Positions 2,130 through 64,000 of a DNA stretch of 64,000 bases are shown one piece after another (positions within the stretch are counted from its first letter, which is position 1; the number at the start of each line of letters is the position of its first letter). Source of the DNA: Neoechinorhynchus agilis (lineage: Eukaryota > Animalia > Acanthocephala); NCBI GenBank assembly GCA_051530055.1, contig CM121341.1, positions 9,960,784 to 10,024,783 on the forward strand, in the 5' to 3' direction. The notes below the pieces were generated by a model, which saw only the letters and a list, made by a program, of their open reading frames with translations, was not told where the DNA came from and did not search any database. The position numbers and the translations under genes are program-made.

Positions 2130-4500
2130 ACGTAATGCGCGGATTTGCTCAGTTCGATCGATTAGAGAGAATATCGTAGAGATTCCGTCGAAAGGTAGTC
2201 GTCTTAAAGCTAAGTTTGACCGACTTATAGAACGCTCAAACGTAGCTGAGGATTTTCAAAAGCGTGACGCAAATATCGAAATTACAGTTGATAGCCCCGA
2301 AATTCCCGCTGGAACTTTGACATCTGCCCAGAAGGATGTCCTGTCGAGAGGACCGGCATTTGTTCCAAGACGTAAGTTCGCGGAACGAGAAACCTTTCAG
2401 CTTCAGATTGACGTTGCGAGGCTAGCCTATCAACTACGTTGGAAATCAAACACGGAGAGATATGAACGATCGCTTCCTACTGCAACTGGGATGAACTCTA
2501 CTTCTGAAACTTCCCCGAGGAAGAGATTTTCTTTTGAAGGCAAGTTCGTTGTTGCTCCTCGAGCAGATGACAATATTGAGAGGAATTTGGTTTGTTTTCT
2601 AGAGAAACTTGAATTTATATGCCAGACTCAAATAAGGAGAACATCTTCAAACAATCTTCCTGACGCTCAAATGCAGGCACTAAAGGACATCAAAAAGTCT
2701 ACTCAAGAAAAGACGATGAGGGTGTCTGTCAGTGACAAAGATGGCGAATTGGTTGTTCTGACGAAGCATTATGAAGACGAAATGATGAAGAAATTGATTT
2801 CCGATGAATCTCTATATAAGCCTGAAACGGAGGATGATTCCGATGAGAAACGATGCAGTTTGAACGAAGCTTTGCGCAGGATAGTCACGCGTAGGAACCT
2901 TACGAGAATGCACGCATTTACCCAAGGGCCCTTACGTACCCCAGTTCTATATGCGATGGTAAAGACCCATAAGATGCCGGAGGTCTTATTGAGAGGAGAC
3001 CAGCTCAAATGCAGACCAATTGAATCTACAATAAATGGACCAGCATATAGGGTATCCAAACTGCTAGCCAAGATGTTGGCTCCTTTGGATGGAGATGGGC
3101 CAGCATACATCAAAAATACGCGCGGACTAACAGAAACATTGGAATCGAGGCAAGATATCCTGCAACGATCTAAAGTGATGTCCTTCGATTTCCAAAGCTT
3201 ATATACAAATGTCGACACTGAAGCCGCAATTGATACATTGGCCAGGAAGTTGCAAGAACGTCGGACAAACCTGTTCGGAATGGAACCTTCTGCTGTGTTG
3301 ATGCTCACACGTCTGGTCCTACAATGCAACCTTTTTCGATTCCGAAATCAACTGTATCGTCAAGTCCGTGGTCTCGCGATGGGTAACAGTCTTGCGCCAG
3401 TCTTGGCTAATCTATTCCTTGATGGCTTAGAGGGGCAGCACATTTTTCCACATCTTTCGTCGAGTCAAATCTATCTCCGATATGTGGATGATGTGCTGCT
3501 AACCTACCACGAGGACAGTGAGGTCGACACAATCGAAGAAAAGCTAAATTCAATGGATTTAGCAGGTATCTGGTCCTTCATCGTGAGTCACACCATCCAT
3601 GGATCATCAAGCAATCTATCTTCACAGAAATGTGGAAAACAGCAATATGTGCTTCGACGGATCAAGGAAAACACGAGGCGGAGGAGCGGATTAAGCAACT
3701 GTTCGCATTACCAGGTTGACGGCTGGTGCGAGGAAAAAAGAGAAAAGATTCGATCGACGAAGTAGATTAGCAGAGGAAAGTCTACCAGTCCTAAAAGTGC
3801 CATTCGTCGATGAAGGATTCATGACCGAAGTCAAGAAAGCATTGCGGCAATGCAAGTTAAAAGCGCGAGTTGTCCACAGGATAGGGCCATCACTCAGACA
3901 GATTTTGAAACAGGCCGAGCACCACGAGGATCAAAATCGTTGTCCGAAGGCATGTCTGATGTGCCCCCATTGCAGCCCTTCAAGGAACGAAGAAGGACGA
4001 TTCCTCAGACCGTCTTGCCAATCAATATGCGTGGTATATAGGATGTTGTGCCGGCTATGCAAGGACGAAGGACGGACAACGTTCTACGTTGGCAAGACTG
4101 AAAGAACATTACGTTCACGTGTGACGGAACACGTGCGTAATGCGCGCAATCTGACAGCTCTGTCATTCCGATCGACCCCATGGGCTACCCATTTCGCTAC
4201 CTCTCACGTTGGTGCCAGCCCAGCCTTCGAGATTGAGGTGATGCACAAGGCATCCGATCCGGTGGATCTCTCGATTGCCGAAGCGCTATGCATTAATCGT
4301 GGGAGAGTAGTGGGATTGGGTGGGGTTACGAGCAGCAAGGACAGACACAACGAGGCAGAGGGGATGCTCAATAAGAGGGATGAGCTGACGGACAGCGTTG
4401 CCCTCCTCTGATTCCTTTTCAGATAACCGAAGAAAAGCTTCCTGACGAAGACGCAAGGCGTCGAAAATTTGAAGTAAGAAATAAATAAAACACTCATTTT
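2130..4500 (+). mobile_element. Penelope-like element, RT plus GIY-YIG endonuclease with Cys-rich linker (Neptune-type architecture), frameshifted
   Basis: ORF 2317-3765 has the PLE N-terminal LTSAQKDVLSRGPAFVP and RT motifs SFDFQSLYTNVD, GLAMGNSLAPVLANLF and YLRYVDD. ORF 3716-4411 has CxxxCxxC upstream of VVYRMLCRLC...FYVGKTERTLRSRVTEH. Confidence 0.92.
4438..4474 (+). ncRNA. Minimal type I hammerhead ribozyme motif in the Penelope 3' end
   Basis: CTTC-CTGACGA-A-GACGC aag GCGTC-GAA-AATT-T-GAAG: 4-bp stem I, conserved core, 5-bp stem II and palindromic AATT in place of stem III. It lies 27 nt after the endonuclease stop codon. Confidence 0.65.
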
Positions 4501-29419: not shown

Positions 29420-30150
29420 ACAGCTGAGTATTTAAAATTTTCTCGAGAGATACTTTTACCGCCTCGTTTAATTTTGCCAGCTTATCCTTGTCTAAATAAA
29501 GGTGTTGTGCGCAGCTTTTATAGCAGTTTTGGAATGAAGAGGGTGTTGTTGATCAGGAACAGATAAATCTTCGGTCTATCTAAATACACGGCGTAAGTAA
29601 CGTACCTGACAGCGCATGAACCGTAAATAATCGATGAGAGAAACACTGTGGTAATCGAAGGCGAGCATCGAATACCCAAGTTTGAGCTTGTTTCAAAATC
29701 GGTATCATGTCTTCAGGCTCAAAAACAAAGATTCCATCTTCACGTCCACAACAAAATGTACTGTTCATATCATCAGCGACAACAAACGAATCACTGTTTC
29801 CCTGAATCACTTCTACTCCATTTACTCTAAGATCTGGATGTGAATCTGAACCATTGCTCACATCTACCTGTCGTTCGTGGGTTGGTGTGATCTCTTCAGG
29901 GAACTCCAGCTTGATCTCCTTCTTAGCTCGGATTTCGTTCATCTTATCTAGATTTGGATCATGACAATGAGGTTTCATGATCTCGATTTGTGGCGCAGAA
30001 AGGTTTTTAAGCCCGTTGCATCCTTTGCGGTCACAGCGTCAATTGATTGTCCCAACGCTTTTCTTGACCCATCGATAGCAGTGGCCACGGAAGGCTATTT
30101 TCGGCCGATACTTTAAAGATTTGAACAAAAGTACTTCGTCCATCTCGGTT
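29420..30150 (-). mobile_element. FLYWCH plus MULE (Mutator-like) transposase remnant
   Basis: The reverse strand gives KIAFRGHCYRWVKKSVGTIN*RCDRKGC...PHCHDP (FLYWCH pattern), then LKQAQTWVFDA...LFTVHALSGTLLTPCI (MULE DDE N-terminal part). Confidence 0.68.
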
Positions 30151-30615
30151 ATTGCACAAATGATCTGAAAAGTCGACGTATTACATTTCGTTTAAAGGAA
30201 TAGGAAATGCAACCGTAATAGCAGCGGTACACGTTGTTTATTCCACAAACGTAGCCGGTATTCGTTCGCAAAAGAACAAATATCGCAACGATCCACACAT
30301 AAACGCGTGCATGAATGAAACCACAAAATACAAACACGCACACAACGATCAATACGCACACATTTCGTGATCTTTGTTTTTATTTATTTTACAAGCATGC
30401 CATACCAATCCAGGAAACACTCTCTATGTATTATCCTTCCGAATCCCACTCTTTTCCTTTTTGATCCAATCTTTGTCCACTCTATCAGCCCCCTTAACAG
30501 GTGACCGATCCATGAGGAGCAAGGGACACTGACTTCACTCTAACCAACTTGTAACTGGCTATAACTTTATTGTGCTAAAACACATTTATAGCTTGATATC
30601 TTCTCAAACTATACG

Positions 30616-31944
30616 ATGGATTACGAAAACGATCCTTATCGTCACCCAGGTTATGAGAAGCAAAGACAGCGGCGACTAGACGCCTATCGTGGGATGCGGA
30701 ATGCAAGATATATGCAATCAGATGAATACAAGAATCTTTCAGGCCCACCCCCATATTACGGACCATCTCGTGGAAGAGGAAGGAGCATGTTTCGGAGGCG
30801 AATGCTCGAAAAGACTCAGACGAACATCCAAGCGGCCAAGATAAGCAAAGATGCCACCCAGTCCATTACACAACGTCTCGAAAGCACACAGCGAGACTTA
30901 CATGTCATCGAAAGATATGGCTCGTCCTACGTGACACTAAGATATCTTCCCGGAGTGCCAAATCTCCTGCCCTATCTATCTCCGCACATTCAAGACCAAA
31001 GCTCAGTCAATCTAGCAGCAGCGAAGATAGTTGAATCACTGGCAATATCGGCGTATGTTAATGAAGTAACAGAAAATGAAAATGGACTTGTGTCCGAATC
31101 GTTTAATACAATGTGGAAGACGTCCGCAATCGCGACTCCCAATGTATTTTCGATGATTTCTGCTCTACGACCGATCAAAACTGAAGATTTTATCATTGTG
31201 AAAAGGCAAAAAGAAGTTCCAGACGAGCTACTGACCAAGACGTCAGGTACAGTGCTCAGACTAGAACGATATTTGACTTACGTCAACGACCCGATTATGA
31301 TGGGCATGATTAGCGCGTGCCACCAAGTATCAACCGAGGCTCAACTCAAGACGGCAATAATTCGAAGAGCCCGTGCCCATGTCGCAATGTTGCCTAACAC
31401 AGTGGTTGATGTCGATTTCGGGGAAGTGATCGACTTCTTATCGATACCACCAGTCCGGACGAAAGATAAGCAATCAGTGATTCAGGTGATGACAATGTTC
31501 GGTTGTTCCAGACATGATGGTTGGGGAATAACCAGGAATGTGGAACTGGAGGACGTTTCGATTGAAAGTTTGTTCCGGCAATTCAGAACTAGTTTTACTA
31601 GAACTGATTTAAACAATTATTTGGATCTGACTGTTCCGATAAGCGAGAGTAATGTTGCAGTTGTTGATCATATCACACCTGTTAACTACTCTGACAGTAC
31701 AAGCAATCCTCTTCATGGTATCAGAGAGTGGAAAATATTCGATCCAATACGGTATGAGCTGCCATACAGAATGAAGCGAAATGTCTGTGGTATGTTCGTA
31801 AGCAGCTTTCTGAGATTGTACGATGTCTCAGATGTTGGAGAATTGAATAAGATGCATCTTCAGGCGAAGGCATCATGTATTCAAATAGACGGTCCGAATC
31901 ATGCCGTCGTGCGTCAGCTCGGCGTCGCTGTTCAATTCATGTAG
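30616..31944 (+). CDS. Intact intronless 442-aa orphan protein; candidate RNA-virus structural (capsid or nucleocapsid) gene
   Basis: Uninterrupted ATG-to-TAG ORF among decayed TEs, with no TE or host motifs recognised. The N-terminus is Arg/Tyr/Pro-rich (RGRGRSMFRRR). Viral origin is inferred, not shown. Confidence 0.7.
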   Translation: MDYENDPYRHPGYEKQRQRRLDAYRGMRNARYMQSDEYKNLSGPPPYYGPSRGRGRSMFRRRMLEKTQTNIQAAKISKDATQSITQRLESTQRDLHVIERYGSSYVTLRYLPGVPNLLPYLSPHIQDQSSVNLAAAKIVESLAISAYVNEVTENENGLVSESFNTMWKTSAIATPNVFSMISALRPIKTEDFIIVKRQKEVPDELLTKTSGTVLRLERYLTYVNDPIMMGMISACHQVSTEAQLKTAIIRRARAHVAMLPNTVVDVDFGEVIDFLSIPPVRTKDKQSVIQVMTMFGCSRHDGWGITRNVELEDVSIESLFRQFRTSFTRTDLNNYLDLTVPISESNVAVVDHITPVNYSDSTSNPLHGIREWKIFDPIRYELPYRMKRNVCGMFVSSFLRLYDVSDVGELNKMHLQAKASCIQIDGPNHAVVRQLGVAVQFM

Positions 31945-32659
31945 CGAAGGCTACATGGTACGGTCGATTTTGTGGCAAAGTCGACTAGTCATTACTACAC
32001 CTAGTTTCCGGGGAGGTTAGTATGACGAGACGCATCCTTCTGTGTATTTTTGAACACAAAAATTTTGTGATCGGAAAACGCGCCGCATGTATCGCTTGAG
32101 TAATGTTTTTGCAATAACGCGTTGTTGGTTGGGGAGTTTGGATGAAACATAATTCAAAAAATGTGTTTGCATTTATCCGTAAAGTGATAATCAAAAAAAA
32201 ACATTTTTACGTTTTAAATGCCATTTAACTGATGTCTACAAAAAGTATTTGTTTGCCAAAAAACAAATGTTTGCAGCGCGTAGTTTTGCTGTTGATAAAA
32301 ATTGCGCTCAGCAAAAAAAAGCTTTTTAAAAGATCCGGATCCTCTGGATGATAGAGGAGGAGGTATGTATGAAGCTTTGGATGTGGATAAAGAGGAGGTA
32401 AGTGCGTGTGTATGTGAGACGGGAATCGGTCAATACGATCCTGCCGTTGTTTCCTCCATGTTGCGTGAATGTGAGACAGTTAGATCTTCCATAGATCATT
32501 CCACCTTTTTTCCCTCCCACATTTCCCCTTCACAATCCATGAAAGGTTTCAAACGACTTACCAGAAAAGAAGACCATATTGTCAAAATTGTTAAGGAAGA
32601 ATCGGGAGACCGTACTTTCTCATTCCTGACCAAGTCATTCTTCTCAAAGTTTCTTCTTA

Positions 32660-33170
32660 CTAAAGGTTACGCTTCAAGAAACTACAATTCAAAAAGCTTT
32701 TTCGCACCAAGTTTGCTTCCATATTGGGTAAAGAGTTATTCTTGAAAATGCTTAAAGAGCTACATATTAAGTGCGTTGATATGTCACGTAGAGTGACATT
32801 CCTTATGTATAACCCCCCACTGATCTTTCTCAGGAGGAATTTGCGGATATCCAAAAAGAATTCGGGATTTCTCCAATAAAATATTTCAAAAGACATCCTA
32901 ACTCTGAACCCCATGACCTAACGTGCTCAGCTCCTCTAAATATCGCTGAAAAATCCGTGGCTCTGGACTAGGGATTAGATCGCACTGGGTCACTTTTTCT
33001 GCCCTTAAAGGGTCAATTTATGACTTTAACCTTATAATTTGTCAAAAATGCTCCCGCTGGGGTCATATGGCTTCTAATTGCCCACATAAAGCAAGGTACC
33101 TTCTATGTGCTGGAAGTCATACAAAAAAGGAGTGTCCGGGAGAGTCGATAAAATGTGCAAATTGCTCCGA
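32660..33170 (+). mobile_element. LINE ORF1 fragment duplicating ~34610-35125
   Basis: Near-identical sequence to 34610-35125, including CPHKARYLLCAGSHTKKECPGESIKCANC. Confidence 0.72.
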
Positions 33171-34454
33171 ATACCGGTCGTCATCCTGTTATCCTACTCT
33201 TCCTTAACAAGGTGTTTGTTTCATTCTTTACATCGTCCTTGGGCTCTGTCCTGACTCGGAATCATTGTGATTGAATTGCTGTAAATCAAAAGGCGGGGGA
33301 AACGGACAGCAGCAAAAGTTGTCTTGTTGAAAAGGAGTTCCTTGTTAGGGTGTTTGTAGCTGCCGTTCAAAAAGGAGTTAATAAAAACAATGAAATCTAC
33401 AAAGTACTGTTAGAGCTAAAAAAATATTGTATATTCTTCACAGAATCAGCTTGTAAATTGCTTTAAATCGACTGATTTCGCCAATTGTTCGCTATGATAA
33501 CTTTTTATCAATTTATTAAAAAACCCTGAGTTTAAAAAGCTTTAAAGGAGCTGCGACGAACAGAACTCCCAAAATGAACATTTCGATGTGGGCGTTTCGG
33601 TTAAAGTCGCGATGCGAAAGGAGCTATCCATCGGAATATAATGCCAAATCTTACTCCGTCAGAATTATTCAAATATATTCGAAGTTTCAGAGGACTATAA
33701 TTATATAGCTACGCCCAATTCCGATTGGATTTTAGTTGAATGCCGAAGATCCAGTGGAAATGCCGTCCGTTGTGAAGATGGCCCCGAATTGTAGAGGAAA
33801 TTATAGAACTCATTAACTCTTCGCTGTTACACTCGCGTATCAATAAGGCAAAATATTTGCGAATAAGAGAAAAAACCAATTGCTTGCGATCGCATGACTT
33901 GGTCGCTATGACAACTTTTGATCAATTTATTTAAATAAACCTTAGCTTTGAAAATTTCAAGGAAGCGACAAATATAACTTCGGATTTCTCAGGATACCGT
34001 ATTCTTGGGCATCCCAATCCTTCGTTGGGATGGGGGGGATTCTTTAAAACGAAGGATTTCTCGGGATGCCGCTATAGTTGTGAATCCCAATCATTCGTTG
34101 AAAGATTCCTCAAAACGATGAATTTTTTGAGATATCGTCAAGCTAAAGGCATGAAATATTCGGTACAATTCTTCTACCTTGAACTTCATGGACTAAGTCG
34201 ATCAAGGCTTTTTTAACGGATTGAAGACTTTACTTGCATGTATTTAATAAATAAATTGTCTTTTGTAACTTCTAGACCTCTGATTTTATGATTCGCATTA
34301 TATCCGTGAAAACAATTGAATCAATCTTAATATTCCACCGTTATGACATTTTCAAAAAAATCATAAAAATTAATCATTTGGCATATAAAAAACAGGGGTT
34401 GTAAAGAAATTATTCATTATAGTTTCAGTTTCAATTAGCGATATTTGATAAGCA

Positions 34455-34496
34455 ATTGACTGAAGAAGGCCAACGATAGGGCCGAAAATTTTCAAT
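34455..34496 (+). ncRNA. Minimal type I hammerhead ribozyme motif enclosed by an inverted repeat
   Basis: ATTGA-CTGAAGA-A-GGCC aacgatag GGCC-GAA-AATT-T-TCAAT has a perfect 5-bp stem I and the same architecture as 4438-4474. A flanking inverted repeat lies at 34423-34449 / 34513-34539. Confidence 0.7.
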
Positions 34497-34589
34497 ATAA
34501 ACCTTTCTCTGAATCAAACATCGCTAATTGAAACGGAAAAAACAGAGGTTTCAATAGTTTTTACATTTTGCAAGAGATCATAATGCACG

Positions 34590-39545: not shown

Positions 39546-39653
39546 GGTAGGAGCTTTATTTGATCCGTTCTCGCTTTACGTTTGATCAATTCTTGAGGCA
39601 CTGGCTGATCCGGACGATCCTCCGTACTATTTGAATCTCCTCCTAAGCAAACG

Positions 39654-40466
39654 GTGGTGCTCGCAGGGATGCAGGATCTCAATCGGTCAACAGAGGCTAT
39701 GGAGGACTTGTCCCTATTCTCCAGAGTGCAATTGGACAAGCTTGAGGATTGTTCAGGAATAGAAAAATCTTGTATCACAATGTTTCGTGACGCAATGCAC
39801 GCGCGGGGGAGTACAGCTTTCAAGGATTCCGCAAAAACCTCGGCGGAGATAGCCATTCAAGAGCACTTCCACAGCTCCAATTGGACCAAGCTGCTGAGAA
39901 ACGTCCCCTATGATCAGAGGGCCGCAGCAACTCGCCTCATGGCCAACTGCCTGCGCAACGTTAGATGGAATGACGTCAACTCCTACCTCACTAGGCTCAA
40001 TGAACAAGCAGTCCGGGCTCTAGAGGGTGCGGCAAACGCCTTTGATCGCCGTCCTGCCCTAGATTTTGCGGATTGGCGCAAATGGGGAAATAAGACCAGG
40101 GAGAAATGTGCGAAATGGACCGTGACCAGGGCCCCCAACGCGCAGGAGTACACGGACGCCTTGTCAGGTGGGCGTTCCATCTTGACCTGGCTGTTGAATC
40201 ATAATCCAGGGGCAATTGGCGAATATCCGAAGAACGCGCAGTGGGCGGCGGTGAAAGCAGAAAGCATCATGGTCGAGGCGGCGATCAAGGCGGTTCCTCA
40301 GGAAGAGCAGGAAGCCTTGGAAGTTCTATCGAAAGAGGCATTGGTTGAGAGTCTCACCATGAAAGCCGGCGTCCTCCCCGCCGCGGAAAAGAAGTTGCTG
40401 ACTGGGCTGAAGAACATTTCCGTGAATGCTTTCAAATTGCGGTTGGTGAATATGGACAAGAGGTAA
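39654..40466 (+). CDS. Intronless 270-aa orphan ORF, helical-looking; possible viral nucleoprotein fragment
   Basis: Open frame with Ala/Leu/Arg-rich composition and no TE motifs. It begins ~110 bp after the truncated Gypsy pol, and the true start is uncertain. Confidence 0.55.
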   Translation: MVLAGMQDLNRSTEAMEDLSLFSRVQLDKLEDCSGIEKSCITMFRDAMHARGSTAFKDSAKTSAEIAIQEHFHSSNWTKLLRNVPYDQRAAATRLMANCLRNVRWNDVNSYLTRLNEQAVRALEGAANAFDRRPALDFADWRKWGNKTREKCAKWTVTRAPNAQEYTDALSGGRSILTWLLNHNPGAIGEYPKNAQWAAVKAESIMVEAAIKAVPQEEQEALEVLSKEALVESLTMKAGVLPAAEKKLLTGLKNISVNAFKLRLVNMDKR

Positions 40467-41419: not shown

Positions 41420-42550
41420 TAAAAGAAAATTGGGATACCGACGTTAGCAATAATTTCGAGAAATATTACTTACATTGAGCCGCTCGTCAACGGTACGAAC
41501 GTTCCACCGCTCGTTCCAAAATCGCTCGATTCATCGGAGAACAAAAAAGAACGATAGGAGGAATGGGAATGCAGCGATAGAAAAAGGACGGCGATTTGGA
41601 AGGTACGAAAAAACAGAAGAATTCACGGTCTGTGTAACGATTTGGCGCACGTTTAAAAAAATTGTCGTCATTTTTCATGTGTTTTTAGTACATGATAAAG
41701 GCACGATATCATGCCGAAATATTGGATTTAATAAATTCCTTTAATTTTTACTTTTACGGATCCGTAATCCACTCCAAATTCAGGTGATCACAAGGACTTA
41801 TCAAAATAAAACGTGATTTTATTACTATAAACAAGAATTGTCTAAGTGGTTTTTATATTCGCAAACATGATAAAATCCTACTTCGATAAAGTATGCAATA
41901 CAAAATAGTAGAATTTGAAATTCCGTTACAAATGAAGATGTATAAATTCATTGCCACGACGGAAGCTCACACGGGCGACTCATAAAGAGCCATAGAATAC
42001 AGTACAACCGAAATAGCAGTCTAAACATTTTAATCAATGGGAATATTTGGCATACCGCAAGGGAGTTGAAATTAAATACATCAAAACCATCCGAATTTAA
42101 TCAACTTTTAAGATACAAAAACTGCGTCAGCAATGGCGATGGAATCGCTTCGAACCGAATTTTCGTTTTTTATCATTAACAAATATTATTTGCAAAATAT
42201 GAATATCAACTAATTCTTAAACCGATCTGCATTAGAAATTGTTTTCCACTAGCACAAGATTTTAATCTTCAGTTTAATAACAATCATTACTTTCCTTCGA
42301 ACGCGATACTTTTTAAGAATTCTGAAAAATCGAGATACATTTGAATTTTTTACAACGCCGTTTATTTTGACGTGAAGTTTACAAACTTTAAAAGTCTTAA
42401 TACAGATTTTTCCATTTATGTTCATTATTAATGGTTTATTCGCCTTCAAACTGCTACTTTATGTTGTTCTTACTTTCTGCTTTTGGAATGTTTGTCCAAT
42501 TGTCTTTCAAAAAGTTTTTGAAGAGTCGCCAATCTCCGTCTTTTCGGAAG
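41420..42550. repeat. ~1.1-kb local duplication (further copies at ~47660-48690 and, partially, ~50400-50670)
   Basis: Near-identical sequence by eye, for example ...ggatccgtaatccactccaaattcaggtgatcac... and ...aatggtttattcgccttcaaactgctacttta... Confidence 0.88.
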
Positions 42551-43544: not shown

Positions 43545-46500
43545 ATGGCGGCTGAGTTGGTAGACGCTACTACCACCAGCGAGCCGAACCATCCTAAGAA
43601 TTCGGTTACGTCGTTGACGTACGGTGCCTTCGATGTGAAACTTAACGATCTTAATGGACCGCGACGTTGTCGCTATGCTTTCTTTACAAATGGTGCTGAG
43701 GCGGTTTGCGATGGCGTTCTTTCTTTACTCTCGAGATATCCACAGACGGTCTTGGATGGTGTCCCTGAGCATTTAAAGAATGTTTTCAAACAAGGTGGTT
43801 TTAGAGTAAAACAACTCCATTTGTTATCGAACCCCCTTACTTCACTGATGTGCTTACTCTATTAAAAGAGGTTCTTTCGCGAGTTGGTCAATTATGTTCA
43901 TCTGACTTGGTAACGGTGAATAGGTTCTTTCAAGATGGGGTTGTCCCGGCTAAAGTTTCGGTATCATTGATGAGCGAAGCTCTTTCTAAACTTTCGGACG
44001 GGAAGTGTCCCAATTGCGGGTTTTTCCTTGTTGAGCAGAGGCATGAGTGCGTCAGAGCCGTCTCTTGGGCTCACTTCCTATTTAATCGGATTTTCAGCAC
44101 AGGCTTATTGACCGATGAAATGCACTTGCGGCATTTGCTTCATTCGACTTCCAATGGCCACGTTTATAAGCCCTTTACTCGCTCTATTGGTTGGTAGCCG
44201 CTCAGCTCCACCAATTGATTTTGCCTAGTAGCTCCTGCATCAGCAGTCATTTGATCACATTACTCGGAGTGCCGATGTGTGATTCTGTTGAACTAACTAG
44301 TTTTGAATCGCAAATGGAATTAGTGACTCGTGTCATTTTGGACCGAGCTAAACATTCAATTAAAGATCTTCTTTCAGATATGGTTGAGGAAATCGTCGGG
44401 TCAACATTGATGACGCCAATCGTAGAAGATAAGAGAAGTGCTCCAATGAATCCCGTCGTTAGTCCCTCACCTAAAACGGTTATGAACAAGGTACCTGTTG
44501 ATAAAGCTGCGGTTGATCAGACAGCGCTGAGCGAGTCTGCCTCAGATATAGTATTCCCAAGCGACGCTGAATTGGTTTCTAGTCCGAGTGCGAAGGATAG
44601 AAGAAGTAAACTCCGCAGCGATTTGAAGGAGCTTCTATCTATGAAAAGAGATTACACCCAGAAGCTGCTCTCTGATTATGAAAGTAACATAACGGTTGCA
44701 CGCGAAACGTGCAGAAAACATCCAACAGCGATGGCCCAGGCCCTAGAAGATCTGCTGTAGTGTGTTTCGCAAACATCAGCCTCACTCGCAGTGATTGAGC
44801 AGGTCTTGGAAGAGATTCAGGCAATGGTCCACCTTGAAGATATCCCTCTTTTGGCATCATATCAAGATGACCGCGATATCGACTCTTTGGCAACAGGTCC
44901 CACAGACTTGGGAACTACATTCACGGCATATATTGCTAGAGGGTTGGCCTCTGAGAATACGGGTCGAGTATCAGTCACGGCGTGTCGGGCAAACCGTGGT
45001 AGTTCGAGATTGGCTTTCACGCCTACTGACAGAACTGGCTCATTTTCGCGCGATCTAGATGCTATGATAAGAAATGTAGCTTACCCTGACGGACCGGTTA
45101 GCGATGTGCTAATCAATGATAGAGCTCAGAACCTTGAGAAGAAAGTGCGAAACGGTGTTCGTGTTCGCTCTTACTTTCTTCTCAATAGGATCGGCAATTC
45201 AAAGAAAAGATTATTGGGTTTATGCTTCGCTCATAGGCATAATCCACCCATGCTCAGGGCACTGGCGCGGGATCTTCATTCCCGTAAGCAGGGGCTATGC
45301 GCGGCCTTTTGCAAGGAGTTGGAAGCGCTAGGAGAATCAATGGAGCTTGTGGAGAAGGCCGAGTGGTGTATCTCCCGGCGAACTGCTTTATTGTCATCGG
45401 TTCGGAACAGACACTTCCGACATTTTTGTTCACCAAGGTGGTTATCTGTGGGTGCAGTCAGAGCTTTGGCTGGGGACGGTGTGAGCGTTTTCTTCACGTC
45501 TTACATCTCCACCCTCCTAGCTGGGCCTGACGGCTACTCACAACGCCTTTCCGATGAATGGAACAAGCTTATGGACTCTATTAATGGCAACCCCATATTC
45601 GTTCCCTATCTCCCGCTGGGATATCAAATGTCTTGTCAACGGATCATTTCCACAAATGTGCCATTCGAATCGACTCTAGTCCTGGCTGGGAATCGTTCCT
45701 TCTTCCGATCGCTGCCGACGCAGCAAACTTTCTACATAGCTAATCAAAGACTGTCTTGTTGACCGAGATGCTTCTGGCCGCGGCGCGTGAATTCATTTCG
45801 AAAAAGAAGATAGCTCAGGACTATGCGTTTTTGGAGGAGGCTGAAACTCGGTTCTATCGTGGTCAATCAGTAAGATTAGCTGGAACTACTCTACCGATCT
45901 GGTTCTCATTTGGTTTCGTGTATGCACATTCCGGGATTATAGGCCCGAATACCACCGACCGCGGGTTGTGCGACGATAAATGATACTGTCGAGGTCGAAA
46001 CTCTAGGTGCAATGGAGGACAAGGCTTTACGCACTTTAGCCACAGGCCCCTGCTGGGATCGTTCCTTCCACTGGATCACCTCAGATGATATCGGCCCATT
46101 AGCGAAAATTGATTTTTCCAGAGTGCTGAACATAGTGCATCATTTGAGTTCAATGATACATAGACGAGATGGCTCGCCGGCTACGTTCGCTAGGCTGAGA
46201 ACATTGCTGTCAAAGGATACAGACCCGAACGTTACGTGTCCTCCCCCAAACGGTATAACCAATCTAGAGGGCTCCATGAGCCGCTTCTGGGCAACCCAAC
46301 CTTTCGAAGTCCTCTGGATACGCATGCCGGTTATAGAATTCCTTCGTTCGATAGCCGCTAACTCTATACGCTGCACTGAAGGTGCAGACGAATACGACGT
46401 ACCATTTGCGGGTAATGTTGCTGCCATGATGGAACAGTGGTTCTCGGACCCGGTTGAACAGCTTTTCCGTATGATCAGGAGAAACGCCGAGACGCTGGAG

Positions 46501-46843: not shown

Positions 46844-46959
46844 ATTCAATTTTAGTCAATCCCTTTCTTGTCCGGCTCAATTCAATTTTAGTCAATCCCT
46901 TTCTTGTCCGGCTTAATTCAATTTTAGTCAATCCCTTTGACTAAAATTGTTGACTAAAA
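46844..46959. repeat. 36-bp tandem repeat (about 2.5 copies) ending in inverted TTTTAGTCAA/TTGACTAAAA boxes
   Basis: attcaattttagtcaatccctttcttgtccggct(c/t)a repeated, then ttgactaaaattgttgactaaaat. Confidence 0.85.
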
Positions 46960-47663
46960 TATCTGATTTTAGTTTGGTCAAATTGAAAGTCCAGGCATTA
47001 GCTTCTTCGCCATACACCTCAGTAGCTGAAATCCGTTACGCTGCTGACTGTAACACTCGTGAGGCCTATGAGATTCTAGGTGTTTCTTGTCGCAATCTTA
47101 GGGTGGCTTACAAACTCAGCCTGGCCTTGACCTTCATCTACTCAAAAATGACTAAGTCGCTGGCTGACTTTTGGCTCGAGGAGTCTGCAACTATGCCTGC
47201 ACACCTCACGAATTCAATACATCCGGATGTAGTAACGATGCTAAATGCCGAGTCTGCCAAGCAGAGGTGGAAGCGAAACTCGCACGAGGCGGCGTGCGGG
47301 ACGGGGCTCCAGGAATGCTTCACGGCAATGAGAAACGTGCGCGAGGCTCTGCAACTGTTGCGAAGGTTGTTTTCCGCGGCGAAACCATGCTGCCAAGCTC
47401 AGATCAGACGCTGGCTCACACCTGATTTGTTTGTTTTTGGCGACTCAAGAGAGGAAGGACACCCAAACTGGAACCTTGCGCGCGCGGCGGCGGAGCCAAA
47501 CGCGCTGTTATCGAAGAGGCAACTTCAATCAGCGGACTGGGTCAGGTTGCTCAAAGAGGAAGAACTCATTGCAGCAATACGGTCAAACTTTTCTGATCCA
47601 CCGCGTTACTCTGCGCTCGGCCATTCACAGCTTCGTGGCCCCCATCCCAGGCAGCGACGTTAG
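46947..47663 (+). CDS. Intronless ~238-codon orphan frame, 3' end truncated by the duplicated repeat; possible viral protein fragment
   Basis: Long open frame without a canonical ATG start and with no TE motifs. It runs into the 47660 repeat. Confidence 0.5.
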   Translation: MLTKISDFSLVKLKVQALASSPYTSVAEIRYAADCNTREAYEILGVSCRNLRVAYKLSLALTFIYSKMTKSLADFWLEESATMPAHLTNSIHPDVVTMLNAESAKQRWKRNSHEAACGTGLQECFTAMRNVREALQLLRRLFSAAKPCCQAQIRRWLTPDLFVFGDSREEGHPNWNLARAAAEPNALLSKRQLQSADWVRLLKEEELIAAIRSNFSDPPRYSALGHSQLRGPHPRQRR

Positions 47664-48690
47664 CAATAATTCCGAGAAATATTACTTACATTGAGCCGCT
47701 CGTCAATGGTACGAAGGTTCTACCGCTCGCTCCGAAATCGCTCGATTCATCGGAGAACAAAAAAAGAACGATAGGAGGAATGGGAATGCAGCGATAGAAA
47801 AAGGACGGCGATTTGGAAGGTACGAAAAAACAGAAGAATTCACGGTCTGTGTAACGATTTGGCGCACGTTTAAAAAAATTGTCGTCATTTTTCATGTGTT
47901 TTTAGTACATGATAAAGGCACGATATCATGCCGAAATATTGGATTTAATAAATTCCTTTAGTTTTTACTTTTACGGATCCGTAATCCACTCCAAATTCAG
48001 GTGATCACGAGGACTTATCAAAATAAAACGTGATTTTATTACTATAAACAAGAATTGTCTAAGTGGTTTTTATATTCGCAAACATGATAAAATCCTACTT
48101 CGATAAAGTATGCAATGCAAAATGGTAGAATTTGAAATTCCGTTACAAATGAAGATGTATAAATTCATTGCCACGACGGAAGCTCACACGGGCGACTCAT
48201 AAAGAGCCATAGAATACAGTACAACCGAAATAGCAGTCTAAACATTTTAATCAATGGGAATATTTGGCATACCGCAAGGGAGTTGAAATTAAATACATCA
48301 AAACCATCCGAATTTAATCAACTTTTAAGATACAAAAACTGCGTCAGCAATGGCGATGGAATCGCTTCGAACCGAATTTTCGTTTTTTATCATTAACAAA
48401 TATTATTTGCAAAATATGAATATCAACTAATTCTTAAACCGATCTGCATTAGAAATTGTTTTCCACTAGCACAAGATTTTAATCTTCAGTTTAATAATAA
48501 TCATTACTTTCCTTCGAACGCGATATTTTTTAAGAATTCTGAAAAATCGAGATACATTTGAATTTTTTACAACGCCGTTTATTTTGACGTGAAGTTTACA
48601 AACTTTAAAAGTCTCAATGAAGATTTTTCCATTTATGTTTATTATTAATGGTTTATTCGCCTTCAAACTGCTACTTTATGTTTTTCTTAC
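47660..48690. repeat. Second copy of the 41420-42550 duplication
   Basis: Direct near-identity with 41450-42470. Confidence 0.88.
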
Positions 48691-50300
48691 TTTCTTCGAG
48701 TAGGAAATGTTGCTTTCTGCGAGGGTTTCCACACACGTGGCGTCCCAGAGAAGGCATTTGCCCTCCCGCCACGGAACGAGACCATGTCTCCCGAAAGCAT
48801 CAACCAAAGACCCACATCGACAGCGATGGGATGTGCATATCGGGAGACCAAGTCTTAAGGATATTGCGATCCTCGTTACCTCGTCAGTAAGAAGAGTTCC
48901 CACTGATGCCAGAGGAACAGCCTCCAACCACGCCCCGATTCTCCTGTCGAAACTACCAACAATCTAACTCGGACGACCCATCGCAAGAACCTGAAAGTAG
49001 AGAGCTGTTAGCTCCCGCGACGAGCGGTCTGTCCCGGATCGACTGTCTGACGCCATTCACGGGAACATAGTTAACGCCTCTCTGCTGGCACCATTCTTTA
49101 ACTGCCACCACAGTCCTGGATAAGACAAAACTTTCCCCTCAGAATTATCTTCGCTATCGGTTGACGCCCCTCATACGATCCAAGAAAGGCTGGCGAGGCA
49201 AGGTCTACTAGCGCCCGAATGCCCAATCCCCCAGATGACACAGGCAATTGAGCTTCTCGCCACGCCTCATCTGAGAGCTGGACATTTAAAATGCGCTCGA
49301 GACAAGCCATCATCTTGTCGTCAAGCTTAGCCAATCCGTCCTTATGTTTGAAGAATGTTGCTATGCGGACCTTATATAACAATTTCGGAATAAAGAGTGC
49401 GTTCTTTATCAGAAATAACGCTTCGTGAGCCGATAGAGCGCTCACCCTATCGCACAGCAACGAAAGTTTCGGTATGATATGGCCGATCTCATCTTCCACA
49501 TTTGAATCAAAGACGACATTACCAGGGAGGCTGAGTTGTTCTCGAGTCACGAGTTTCAGACCTGGAGCTACGGCCTCAAACCCATCCATTAGCTCCTTGA
49601 TTTTGGCGGCGTCTTCGATATTTAATACTAGGAGCTCACACTTTCCACCATTAAGCTCAACGCCCCAATAACCGAACAGCCCCTGAACATCTCCGTCCGC
49701 AAGCTTCGAAGAGACACGTTCAGTCAGTGATCGTTTTGAAAAACGGCAACGAAACCCTTCCTTCGTGCGTCCTTTACGAACCTCGCGAAATTTCATTTCG
49801 AAATTGTTAAATATCTGATCGAAGAATTCCACCCTTCCCTTGATTGTTGATGTCAAAGACACCCCAGAATCATCACTGGTGCAAAGGACTAAGCGCTGGA
49901 ATGCGAAGAGCCGTGTCCATGATGGCGTACAGTTCTTTTGGAGGCAATCGTTGAGCAATCCGGTAAATGCTTTCGCGACCTGATATCGTGCGCCCCTTGG
50001 GATCTGTTTCAGGACGTTCCTGGGTAGAACCCGCACGATATCAAGTATCGAAATGGAGTCAGTGGTGATCTGAGAAGTCCCAGGCATAAACAGATCGGTT
50101 GATTGTGATGGAGAATCAGGCCAGCCACAGCAGAGATCCCGGAGACCATGGGTAAACAAAAACCCCAATTGGTTAATTTACAAGATTTACCGAAAACCGA
50201 ACACATACCAGTAGAGACGTGTGGTAGCCCGGCAGCGTTGGTCTTCTCAGGTTGAGAGTGATCGATAAGTGGATCGTTCAAGGTGTCTGCGTTGAGCGTT
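48690..50300 (-). mobile_element. CRE-like RLE LINE with the RT core deleted
   Basis: Homologous to 5890-8720. The N-terminal Zn finger region is joined directly to WGVELNGGK...SSGGLGIRAL and PWREGKCLLWDATCVETLA. Confidence 0.88.
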
Positions 50301-58448: not shown

Positions 58449-58620
58449 TTTTTGTGGCTTTTTAATAGAAAATCAAAGTCTTAACGCGTACGAAAGAAGT
58501 CGCTGTTATGTTGTTGTTTTGCTAAAACGTTTGTAGGAGTATAAAATTCAAAATATCTTCGAAATGAACTTGTGGTTGTCATAATCCAGTAATACAATTT
58601 TGTTTATTGAAATTTCACGA

Positions 58621-61600
58621 ATTATGATCATCAAAAGTTCATTTCGAGAATATTTTGAATGAGTCTAAAAGCCTAAGATTAAAAATATTCCCGAAATGAA
58701 ATTGTGGTGATTATAATGCCGGATATTTTCGGTAAACAAATTTTTATCCAGGATTATGATAAACACAAGTTCATTTCGATAATATTTTGATTCTATTCAA
58801 TTGTTGCCGGATATTTTCGGTAAACAAATTTTTATCCAGGATTATGATAAACACAAGTTCATTTCGATAATATTTTGATTCTATTCAATTGTTCCTTCGA
58901 ATGGATTTGTATTCTCAATGGCGAATTGTAACACATTCGAGTTTTATTATTGAACTCTTCATTGCGAATCTTCAAGGCCTCATCTCGAGTGTGTAACAAT
59001 TCGCCATTGAGAATAATATTTTGAATGAGCAAACAAAATTATTCTCGAAATAAGATTGCGGTGATCATAATTCGGGATATTTCAGTAAACAAATTTTATG
59101 ATAAACAAAAGTTCATTTCGAGAATATTTTGATTCTATTCAATTGTTCCTTCGAATGGATTTGTATTCTCAATGGCGAATTGTTACACTGTAGTTTTATT
59201 ATTGAAATCTTCATTGCGAATCTTCAAGGCCTCATCTCGAGTGTGTAACAATTCGCCATTGAGAATAATATTTTGAATGAGTAAACAAAATTATTCTCGA
59301 AATAAGATTGTGGTGATCATAATTCGGGATATTTCAGTAAACAAATTTTATGATAAACAAAAGTTCATTTCGAGAATATTTTAATTCTATTCAATTGTTC
59401 CTTCGAATGGATGTGTATTCTCAATGGCGAATTGTTACACTTCGAGTTTTATTATTGAAATCTTCATTGCGAATCTTCAAGGCCTCATCTCGAGTGTGTA
59501 ACAATTCGCCATTGAGAATAATATTTTGAATGAGTAAACAAAATTATTCTCGAAATAAGATTGTGGTGATCATAATTCGGGATATTTCAGTAAACAAATT
59601 TTATGATAAACAAAAGTTCATTTCGAGAATATTTTAATTCTATTCAATTGTTCCTTCGAATGGATGTGTATTCTCAATGGCGAATTGTTACACTGCTCGA
59701 GTTTTATTATTGAAATCTTCATTGCGAATCTTCAAGGCCTCATCTCGAGTGTGTAACAATTCGCCATTGAGAATAATATTTTGAATGAGTAAACAAAATT
59801 ATTCTCGAAATAAGATTGTGGTGATCATAATTCGGGATATTTCAGTAAACAAATTTTATGATAAACAAAAGTTCATTTCGATAATATTTTAATTCTATTC
59901 AATTGTTCCTTCGAATGGATGTGTATTCTCAATGGCGAATTGTAACACATTCGAGTTTTATTATTGAAATCTTCATTGCGAATCTTCAAGGCCTCAGCTC
60001 GAGTGTGTAACAATTCGCCATTGAGAATAATATTTTGAATGAGTAAACAAAATTATTCTCGAAATAAGATTGTGGTGATCATAATTCGGGATATTTCAGT
60101 AAACAAATTTTATGATAAACAAAAGTTCATTTCGAGAATATTTTAATTCTATTCAATTGTTCCTTCGAATGGATGTGTATTCTCAATGGCGAATTGTTAC
60201 ACTGCTCGAGTTTTATTATTGAAATCTTCATTGCGAATCTTCAAGGCCTCAGCTCGAGTGTGTAACAATTCGCCATTGAGAATAATATTTTGAATGAGTA
60301 AACAAAATTATTCTCGAAATAAGATTGTGGTGATCATAATTCGGGATATTTCAGTAAACAAATTTTATGATAAACAAAAGTTCATTTCGATAATATTTTA
60401 ATTCTATTCAATTGTTCCTTCGAATGGATGTGTATTCTCAATGGCGATTTGTAACACATTCGAGTTTTATTATTGAAATCTTCATTGCGAATTTTCAAGG
60501 CCTCAGCTCGAGTGTGTAACAATTCACCATTGAGAATAATATTTTGAATGAGCAAACAAAATTATTCTCGAAATAAGATTGTGGTGATCATAATTCGGGA
60601 TATTTCAGTAAGCAAATTTTATGATAAACAAAAATTCATTTCGAGAATATTTTGATTCTATTCAATTGTTCCTTCGAATGGATGTGTATTCTCAATGGCG
60701 AATTGTTACACTGCTCGAGTTTTATTATTGAACTCTTCATTGCGAATCTTCAAGGCCTCAGCTCGAGTGTGTAACAATAAACCATTGAGAATAATATTTT
60801 TAATGAGCAAACAAAATTATTCTCGAAATAAATGTGATCTATTGGATATTTCAGTAAACAAAATTATTCTCGAAATAAGATTGCGGTGATCATAATTCGG
60901 GATATTTCAGTAAACAAATTTTATGATAAACAAAAGTTCATTTCGAAAATATTTTAATTCTATTCAATTGTTCCTTCGAATGGATGTGTATTCTCAATGG
61001 CGAATTGTTACACTGCTCGAGTTTTATTATTGAAATCTTCATTGCGAATCTTCAAGGCCTCAGCACGAGTGCGTAACAATTCGCCATTGAGAATAATATT
61101 TTGAATGAGCAAACAAAATTATTCTCGAAATAAGATTGTGGTGATCATAATTCGGGATATTTCAGTATACAAATTTTATGATAAACAAAAGTTCATTTCG
61201 AGAATATTTTAATTCTATTCAATTGTTCCTTCGAATGGATGTGTATTCTGAATGGCGAATTGTAACACATTCGAGTTTTATTATTGAAATCTTCATTGCG
61301 AATCTTCAAGGCCTCAACTCGAGTGCGTAACAATTCGCCATTGAGAATAATATTTTGAATGAGTAAACAAAATTATTCTCGAAATAAGATTGTGGTGATC
61401 ATAATTCGGGATATTTCAGTATACAAATTTTATCATAAACAAAAGTTCATTTCGAGAATATTTTGATTCTATTCAATTGTTCCTTCGAATGGATGTGTAT
61501 TCTGAATGGCGAATTGTAACACATTCGAGTTTTATTATTGAAATCTTCATTGCGAATCTTCAAGGCCTCAACTCGAGTGCGTAACAATTCGCCATTGAGA

Positions 61601-63300
61601 ATAATATTTTGAATGAGTAAACAAAATTATTCTCGAAATAAGACTGTGGTGATCATAATTCGGGATATTTCAGTAAACAAAATTATTCTCGAAATAAGAT
61701 TGTGGTGATCATAATTCGGGATATTTCAGTAAACAAATTTTATGATAAACACAAGTTCATTTCGAGAATATTTTAATTCTATTCAATTGTTCCTTCGAAT
61801 GGATGTGTATTCTCAATGGCGAATTGTTACACTGCTCGAGTTTTATTATTGAACTCTTCATTGCGAATCTTCAAGGCCTCAGCTCGAGTGTGTAACAATT
61901 CGCCATTGAGAATAATATTTTGAATGAGTAAACAAAATTATTCTCGAAATAAGATTGTGGTGATCATAATTCGGGATATTTCAGTAAACAAATTTTATGA
62001 TAAACAAAAGTTCATTTCGATAATATTTTAATTCTATTCAATTGTTCCTTCGAATGGATGTGTATTCTCAATGGCGATTTGTAACACATTCGAGTTTTAT
62101 TATTGAAATCTTCATTGCGAATCTTCAAGGCCTCAACTCGAGTGTGTAACAATTCGCCATTGAGAATAATATTTTGAATGAGTAAACAAAATTATTCTCG
62201 AAATAAGATTGTGGTGATCATAATTCGGGATATTTCAGTAAACAAATTTTATGATAAACAAAAGTTCATTTCGAGAATATTTTAGTTCTATTCAATTGTT
62301 CCTTCGAATGGATGTGTATTCTCAATGGCGAATTGTAACACATTCGAGTTTTATTATTGAACTCTTCATTGCGAATCTTCAAGGCCTCAGCTCGAGTGTG
62401 TAACAATTCACCATCGAGAATAATATTTTGAATGAGCAAACAAAATTATTCTCGAAATAAGATTGCGGTGATCATAATTCGGGATATTTCAGTAAACGAA
62501 TTTTATGATAAACAAAAGTTCATTTCGAGAATATTTTAATTCTATTCAATTGTTCCTTCGAATGGATGTGTATTCTCAATGGCGATTTGTAACACATTCG
62601 AGTTTTATTATTCAATTCTTCATTGCGGATTTTCAAGGCCTCAACTCGAGTTCGCAACAATTCGCCATTGAGAATAATATTTTGAATGAGTAAACAAAAT
62701 TATTCTCGAAATAAGATTGTGGTGATCATAATTCGGGATATTTCAGTAAACAAATTTTATGATAAACACAAATTCATTTCGAGAATATTTTAATTCTATT
62801 CAATTGTTCCTTCGAATGAATGTGTATTCTCAATGGCGAATTGTTACACTGCTCGAGTTTTATTATTGAAATCTTCATTGCGAATCTTCAATGCCTCAGC
62901 TCGAGTGTGTAACAATTCGCCATTGAGAATAATATTTTGAATGAGTAAACAAAATTATTCTCGAAATAAGATTGTGGTGATCATAATTCTTGATATTTCA
63001 GTAAACAAATTTTATGATAAACACAAATTCATTTCGACAATATTTTTAATGAGTCTAAAATATGAAATATTCCAGAAATTTATTTGTGGAGATCATAATG
63101 CCAGATATTTGAGTGGAATATTTATATCTTCTATTATGATCATCAAAAGTTCATTTCGAGAATATTTTGAACGAGTCCAAAAGCCTAAGATCAAAAATAT
63201 TTCCGAAATGAATTTGATGTGATTATAATGCCGGATATTTTCGGTAAACAAATTTTTGTCCAGGATTATGATAAAAAAGTTTATTTCGATAATATTTTGA
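58621..63300. repeat. Satellite array of about 16 units of ~254 bp, each with an internal ~30-bp inverted repeat, bracketed by ~175-bp direct repeats
   Basis: Unit starts at 59279, 59532, 59787, 60041 and 60296 (spacing 253-255). Each unit contains tattctcaatggcgaattgttacac...gtgtaacaattcgccattgagaata. Flanks 58621-58795 and 63133-63300 match each other. Confidence 0.95.
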
Positions 63301-64000
63301 ATATGTCAATTTTATGTTTTTTAGAACATTTTTTCCTCGGCCTATTTTCATTTTAAGCATACATCGGTTTGACTGTAGCCGAAAAAGTCAAAAACGCTGA
63401 ATCAATGGAACCGGTTTACCGGCAAACATTAAAGAGTTAATTTAAGGCTAACAGTAAAAGGAAATGGAATGAACCTAACTGGAAAACTAATTTTTTTAGA
63501 TGGAACTTTTTATTCTATGAACGTGATTGAAAAATCGCCAGCTTCATGTATGATTCAGATGTGTGTGTGTGTGTGTTTTTATCTTGTTGTGTACCAACAG
63601 CTCTACTTGAATCGATTTTCTTTTATGATGCTACTGAATAAAAGTCTTAAATGCTCTTAGATCAAATCGAGATGTGAGGTAAGAAACATCGCATCGTTTC
63701 CTAAGAAACACTAACCTGTTGAATCCAAGCCGAATGTTGACAATCACTACGAATCCAAAATTTAGTTGATGTTTTCATACCGTTGATTATCACACTAGTT
63801 TAGGCATTAGTCGGTTGTTAGCGCATCTTCCCAAAGCCATTTAAGGATCTCTTCGATGTACAAAGACTAAAGTAATCCATATCCGAGAAGACTTTCCACT
63901 CTTCGAGTTTTTATTGTGAACACCACCAAGCCTAAATGAACAACCAAAATTTTCCACCAGTAAATGGCAATATATCTCGTGCCACGAAACGGAAGCGGAT

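Follow-up and report, generated by a model that had tools for sequence, protein, structure and literature searches.

The 64,000-nucleotide stretch of Neoechinorhynchus agilis DNA analysed here (hereafter the window) contains an insertion which is bounded by a target-site repeat at both ends, exists in an empty form, is made of two parts and carries an intact open reading frame (ORF) of which no near-identical parent was seen in the reads. We think it probable that the reverse transcriptase (RT) of a non-LTR retroelement made this insertion, by copying the RNA of an undescribed acanthocephalan RNA virus together with the tail of the element itself.

A preliminary description had placed the limits of the unit at 30616 and 32180; the real ones, target-site repeats included, are 30367 and 32072. 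The target-site repeat, the empty allele and the retroelement 3′ end joined in inverse orientation did not figure in that description. The inserted DNA is of 1,694 bp (30373-32066) and lies between two copies of GTGATC, i.e. a 6-bp target-site repeat. It consists of a 152-bp dispersed repeat on the minus strand followed by a 1,542-nt unit on the plus strand, the latter being composed of a 91-nt leader, the ORF and a 122-nt folded trailer. The features are as follows, with the basis of each in brackets.

30367-30372, no strand: left GTGATC target-site repeat (sequence; empty joint from 30367 to 32068)
30373-30390, minus strand: A-rich (TAAAA-type) 3′ tail of the dispersed repeat, with AATAAA (sequence; length variation in reads)
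30387-30524, minus strand: dispersed repeat with about 2-4 other loci, probably a non-LTR retroelement 3′ end (X8 depth)
30525-30615, plus strand: unique leader of 91 nt, likely the 5′ UTR of the captured RNA (depth at the level of the ORF from 30528)
30616-31944, plus strand: 442-aa ORF of an acanthocephalan-restricted family, with a basic arm (translation; homology searches)
31945-32066, plus strand: 3′ UTR of 122 nt with a run of hairpins and no poly(A) before the target-site repeat (fold z −4.58)
32067-32072, no strand: right GTGATC target-site repeat (sequence; single copy at a diverged second locus of the flank)
32193-32201, plus strand: A9 run, part of the flank, outside the insertion (sequence; read joints)

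The first part of the insertion is present elsewhere in the genome. In X8, the bins covering 30404-30527 have depths of 112 and 68, versus about 14 in the ORF, and 41 reads of this run go on into other sequence past 30524. The other loci of the repeat start at 30374-30388 after differing flanks (loose ends are found before 30374, 30387 and 30388), and the T-rich end varies in length, five X8 reads having one extra 5-bp unit at 30382. A minus-strand 3′ end with an A-rich tail is the pattern of a non-LTR retroelement and, from this tail and the end pattern, the repeat is likely to be such a 3′ end. Its 46-codon frame, which may resemble the end of an RTE-type ORF2, has no match in Pfam, and there is no other copy of the repeat within the 64-kb window. 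This copy departs from most of the others at about 7 of 150 sites, i.e. ∼5%, which argues against a very young insertion unless the donor was itself a variant. At the diverged second locus of the flank, GTGATC is single (loose end behind 30342). The A9 run, initially interpreted as a poly(A) tail, sits about 120 bp past the right target-site repeat; since the flanking DNA which carries it exists without the insertion, it is not the tail of the unit.

Integration into the chromosome is attested by two DNA contigs of X2 (records 3 and 6), which bridge both junctions, and by raw X8 reads, which cover the insertion; the TE fragments and the Arf and hydroxylase genes of the window are in line with this. 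The empty joint, going from 30367 to 32068 and thus skipping 1,700 bp, was found in five of the six sequencing runs (X1, X2, X3, X5 and X8) and was absent in X4. In X2, contig depth is 255.7 for the left and 286 for the right shared flank, 137.3 for the insertion junction, 124.4 for the insertion body and 144.2 for the empty joint; contig depth is not equivalent to copy number, and the raw X8 reads agree with the picture given by the contigs. In these reads, 11 of the 30 bins of the insertion were selected as paralogue-free and have a mean depth of 13.9x, to be compared with a nominal 33x (for a genome of 46.2 Mb, the N. agilis size given in PMC12690905) and with 27x at 29936-30069; 28 reads mark the second locus of the flank and eight span the empty joint. 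The full and empty alleles of X2 do not differ over 65 bp of left and 51 bp of right flank. These observations suggest a presence/absence polymorphism at roughly 50:50, a segregating insertion being the simplest reading; a duplication giving two loci, one full and one empty, is strictly speaking conceivable.

The ORF reported initially is indeed intact from ATG to stop (30616-31944, plus strand) and codes for 442 amino acids, whereas the longest ORFs in 30 block-wise shuffles of the window were of 110-226 aa. The basic N-terminal arm rich in Arg, Tyr and Pro is also real: residues 1-65 have a pI of 10.1 and include 13 R, 8 Y and 6 P. The protein has no transmembrane segment (top 19-residue hydropathy, 1.24), and low-confidence structure models predict a long N-terminal helix over residues 55-100. 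As stated previously, the ORF is intronless, with no intron joint in any of the six runs. Its GC3, 0.44, lies within the range of TEs and host exons (0.38-0.46), i.e. its composition is not foreign. Two allelic SNPs were seen over 1.3 kb, at residues 36 and 361, and both are non-synonymous. From the size of the protein, its basic arm and the monocistronic nature of the unit, we infer a role as capsid or nucleocapsid, with likely RNA-binding activity; the basic arm alone is not specific for a capsid of the partitivirus type.

The two hairpins described at the stop codon were found as announced: the first begins at 31941 and contains the TAG stop, and the second begins at 31963 and includes one G-U pair. 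The segment 31936-31990 folds with a z of −6.2 and the longer 31930-32066 with a z of −4.58, a stability reached in none of 200 shuffles. As a background, only one of 145 window segments of equal length had a z ≤ −4; this segment, which folds as strongly as the 3′ UTR, is 34401-34537 on the plus strand (z −4.9). The leader region (30500-30620) is unstructured (z −0.04). An Rfam scan of the 1,542-nt unit, 3′ UTR included, gave no match. The ends of the unit, which may resemble reovirus or phenuivirus termini, were negative in a panhandle test, the best duplex (−5.2 kcal/mol) corresponding to negligible complementarity. A sigma-70 scan, irrelevant to a eukaryote, was at chance levels.

Homology searches did not lead to a known virus. 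The ORF has no match in Pfam, PDB, NCBIfam or PHROGs, and no viral homologue was found in viral contigs, in metagenome contigs or in a 5.8-billion search with protein and profile queries. None of 10 family members matched the rhabdovirus nucleocapsid profiles of Pfam at E ≤ 10, and no RdRp tied to the ORF family was detected. Two AlphaFold2 predictions, made with one and three sequences before the deeper alignment A3, had a pLDDT of 33.5 and 35.8 and are unusable; Foldseek, run against BFVD with the low-confidence model (pLDDT 34-36), returned no match at E ≤ 0.001. For the relative P0013, the Atlas model (pLDDT 0.33) gave no usable Atlas match either. The Atlas feature neighbours listed are all virus clusters and, with scores of 0.82-0.85, below the 0.9 bar, constitute a lead only. 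The earlier proposal of a viral capsid, for example a partiti-like one, thus found neither a viral relative by sequence nor a usable model to sustain it. Since no viral homology by sequence was found, we do not file the ORF under any virus family.

The ORF had also been presented as an orphan. This is true with respect to the family libraries, where it has no match, but relatives exist within acanthocephalans. Among 1.84 billion proteins, a length-free HMMER scan detected 10 matches: nine are family members, i.e. five N. agilis proteins, three from Pomphorhynchus laevis and one Logan protein (P0010, from a 1,415-nt contig), and the tenth is a false match, a low-complexity, repeat-rich protein (P0012) which was excluded from all alignments. 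The 5.8-billion search revealed two further N. agilis proteins besides the query, and its profile query nothing new. Identity to the query is 54-72% in N. agilis, 42-43% and 22% in P. laevis and 38% for the Logan contig protein; the 22% link scores 42.8 bits, versus at most 6.6 in 2,000 shuffles. The closest annotated piece is 90% identical, but over 50 residues only. Most relatives are fragments, or are located within gene models having unrelated parts, and the near-full ORFs besides the query are P0002 (419 aa) and P0013 (442 aa). In a tree of nine of the 10 rows of A3 (P0008 was left out; A3 itself excludes the short pieces P0005 and P0006), the N. agilis copies cluster and the family follows its hosts. 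Among the paralogue-read differences listed, 18 of the 24 classified are at third codon positions, these reads being biased to conserved stretches. Such a bias, together with the non-synonymous SNPs of the ORF, fits selection before insertion and not after, the numbers being small. Two of the P. laevis models are composite: P0007 has a P0013-type piece (69%) followed by a window-type piece, i.e. two diverged family members in tandem, and in P0011 a family piece is joined to a C2H2-rich part which presumably resembles R2-type elements.

Speaking against a viral reading are the absence of a viral homologue or RdRp in these searches, the non-foreign composition and the host-structured tree, which is like that of a host gene family. 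Even so, a viral origin of the ORF has, in our judgement, a good chance of being correct. In the raw X8 DNA reads, examined at 82% likeness, depth over the chosen bins is 10-17x and there is no near-identical parent gene; the extra reads over the ORF cover short stretches only, each with many differences. Had a host mRNA been retrocopied recently, its near-identical parent should contribute about 27x more. As none is seen, a source of the RNA outside the genome is likely, and this result is our strongest argument. With the target-site repeat, the empty site and the lack of both intron and parent, the idea of a whole RNA unit which was reverse-transcribed and recently inserted is supported. Two observations which had been named beforehand as contrary to it were not made: the searches gave no match to a host or TE family, and the runs examined show no splice joint of a host transcript over the ORF.

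The surroundings of the insertion can be described briefly. Penelope, gypsy and LINE fragments are strewn over the window, whose right side carries Arf-like and hydroxylase genes. The notion of an intact ORF among decayed elements is correct for the direct neighbours, which are broken, but it does not extend to the Penelope-like element at 2131-4411 (plus strand; RT and GIY-YIG frames), whose RT frame at 2131 is open over 544 codons. Left of the insertion, 29583-30038 (minus strand) is an open frame of unassigned family, with an X1 depth of 242 and a contig diverging at 29581; a second locus of this frame exists and is probably intact, and the window copy may be cut by a retroelement fragment. 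On the right side, a high-copy element at 32267-33204 (plus strand), with a sharp start at 32267 (146 X8 loose ends) and a zinc-knuckle gag-like frame, is likely the 5′ part of a LINE. A second orphan multi-copy family of about 1,000 codons, with a stop and frame changes, is found between retroelement fragments at 43545-46476 (plus strand) and has no match in Pfam, PDB, NCBIfam or PHROGs. Its paralogues are P0015, P0017 and the N-terminal part of P0004 (31-53%). The locus tag of P0015 adjoins that of P0005, and part of a member of the 442-aa family is likewise contained in the P0004 model; a profile match between alignments A3 and A5 was discarded as an artefact because A5 includes P0004. This second family is possibly another gene of the same virus. 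It is flanked by two 1,041-bp direct repeats (41439-42478 and 47655-48695; 98.3% identical), which lack TG...CA ends and are not clearly LTRs. Two more orphan frames, 39609-40466 (plus strand, 285 codons, GC3 0.63) and 46941-47663 (plus strand, 240 codons), have no credible family match. Finally, a tandem array of ∼255-bp units with internal inverted similarity and inverted ends occupies 58546-63302.

One could imagine that the ORF is the cargo of an acanthocephalan mobile element, comparable to the accessory or structural ORFs of the rotifer Terminons, and that the insertion is a chimeric by-product. Members of the family are indeed found among TE pieces (P0004 comes with a zinc-knuckle part and P0011 with its C2H2-rich part), the second orphan family lies near the ORF family at three places, and the low-confidence helix predicted over residues 55-100 would be in keeping with this. 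We nonetheless judge it unlikely: the raw X8 reads contain no close source copy, Rfam detects no hammerhead and two core-like matches fall inside the ORF, the copies are 54-74% apart and do not make up a young family, and PMC8557442 describes Athena elements as rotifer-specific. A cargo of the Terminon/Athena kind proper was considered and rejected, there being no hammerhead at the end of the unit, no co-oriented RT frame within the insertion and no telomeric repeats of the type required.

Another possibility is that the mRNA of a host gene, fast-evolving and confined to acanthocephalans, was retrocopied along with the retroelement tail. The restriction of the relatives to acanthocephalans, their host-structured tree, the near-full ORFs of P0002 and P0013 and the third-position bias would all be expected of such a gene, and the lack of poly(A) proves nothing since twin priming can drop it. 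What makes this explanation improbable is that the extra ∼27x of X8 depth from a near-identical parent is not seen and that the best annotated piece attains 90% identity over its 50 residues only.

The question of whether the ORF is recent or co-opted was left undecided in the preliminary description. X1, X3, X4 and X5 each yielded one contig of 1,648-1,715 nt comprising the whole ORF and the right flank, at a depth of 13.6-43.4, with 0-2 differences and no splice joint; the pieces corresponding to the left junction and to the empty joint have a lower depth (3-6). These four runs, chosen for containing the stretch, are RNA by guess, none being recorded so, and their contigs are strandless. X1 depth is zero at 32616-33151, where that of X2 exceeds 1,400, as expected of RNA. 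The genomic copy is, therefore, probably transcribed. The excess over the ORF (14-43) relative to the junction pieces is one of the points in favour of an older virus-derived ORF, kept open under balancing selection for a useful protein such as a dominant-negative antiviral. The others are the ∼5% divergence of the repeat, at which an unselected ORF would be free of stops with a probability of only ∼0.05, and the four SNP combinations over X1-X5 and the window, which point to some age. However, the identity of the X2 full and empty alleles in their flanks and the occurrence of only two SNPs in 1.3 kb, neither of them synonymous, leave this explanation with little probability. Neither fixation nor purifying selection after insertion, by which domestication is recognized, is seen, given the empty allele and the nature of the two SNPs. 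Because the empty site persists and both SNPs are non-synonymous, a recent insertion is favoured, and co-option is not supported. Lastly, a DNA virus, in place of an RNA virus, is very improbable as the source of the captured mRNA: some of the weak Atlas feature matches are ssDNA-virus coat clusters, but Atlas scores are below 0.9, DNA-virus proteins remained unmatched in all searches, and the units consist of a single gene, fold at their 3′ end and are not linked to a replication gene.

Capture of viral RNA by a non-LTR retroelement could have proceeded as follows. The retroelement would nick the target and prime on its own A-rich tail, giving the 152 bp; the other DNA end would prime on a second RNA, and the two cDNAs would then be joined head to head, i.e. 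by twin priming, a mode that the geometry of the insertion fits. Alternatively, the enzyme may have jumped from its first template onto a minus-strand viral RNA; as the outcome would be identical, the product does not tell the polarity of the template. The second RNA, a viral segment or an mRNA, would encode a structural protein of the capsid or nucleocapsid kind, likely one that binds RNA, and a poly(A) tail of this RNA could have been lost through internal priming. The ORF would be open because the insertion is young and not through host selection; the locus would be transcribed and its most likely role, if any, would be that of a source of small RNAs against related viruses.

A more ambitious version, about which we are rather doubtful, supposes an RNA virus lineage confined to acanthocephalans, the structural protein of which is without detectable relatives. 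The 1,542-nt unit would be one entire segment of this virus, captured in trans through twin priming and now segregating and transcribed; 43545-46476 would be another of its genes, and the whole would form an archive feeding piRNAs. If this were true, the worm genome would be a repeatedly refreshed archive of its own virus, supplying the piRNA pathway; acanthocephalans do keep piRNAs, according to PMC12256650. Viruses of Acanthocephala are nearly unknown, and our literature search yielded only RdRp-like sequences in P. laevis, where PMC12548735 describes 18 rhabdo-like ones. With a likely viral structural gene family present in two distant acanthocephalans, there is a probe with which the living virus can be sought. 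The locus has, in addition, kept the traces of its own formation unusually well: the target-site repeat, the empty allele, the tail of the retroelement and the partner RNA can all be read. Small RNAs and virus load can, moreover, be compared between carriers and non-carriers.

How does this insertion compare with known systems? As to the captured unit, three kinds of viral RNA are candidate donors. The capsid segment of partitiviruses and the N mRNA of rhabdoviruses are monocistronic, of about 1.5 kb, and code for a protein of ∼440 aa. The S segment of Qinviruses, which codes for a mononegavirus-like nucleocapsid, is of 1.6-1.9 kb (PMC10721934). Our unit is alike in its single gene and in the size of its protein, with no sequence link found to any of the three; at 1,542 nt it is, compared with the Qinviridae S segment, perhaps shortened, and with respect to the partitivirus capsid it shares the basic arm, a non-specific feature, there being no sequence match and models of pLDDT 34-36 only.

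As to the mode of insertion, the bornavirus-like (EBLN) and filovirus-like elements described in PMC3205384 are intronless, single-gene chromosomal units with a target-site duplication, and exist as many independent, diverged copies, as does the family studied here. The LINE-made bornavirus elements described there have target-site repeats and a poly(A) at the 3′ end of the viral sense strand, and such elements are clearly homologous to a known virus. In our case, it is the retroelement piece, on the other strand, that carries the A-rich tail, and the searches revealed no viral homologue. RNA-virus sequence joined to or flanked by retroelements is also known from LCMV, which recombines with the LTR element IAP (PMC3205384), and from the mosquito viral insertions (NIRVS) located in TE-rich piRNA loci (PMC5497376). 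The retroelements which these two sources report are mainly LTR elements, unlike the one proposed here. The closest parallel in geometry is provided by the antisense RNA/LINE-1 chimeras (5S rRNA, tRNA, U5, mRNA), which PMC13174262 ascribes to twin priming: the RNA is on the opposite strand, it starts at the junction, and there is one target-site duplication. In that source, the partners are cellular RNAs in mammals, and neither ‘viral’ nor ‘virus’ appears in its main text, whereas our partner RNA is of 1.5 kb, protein-coding and without a parent seen in the reads. The N. agilis insertion likely works like a LINE-made endogenous viral element.
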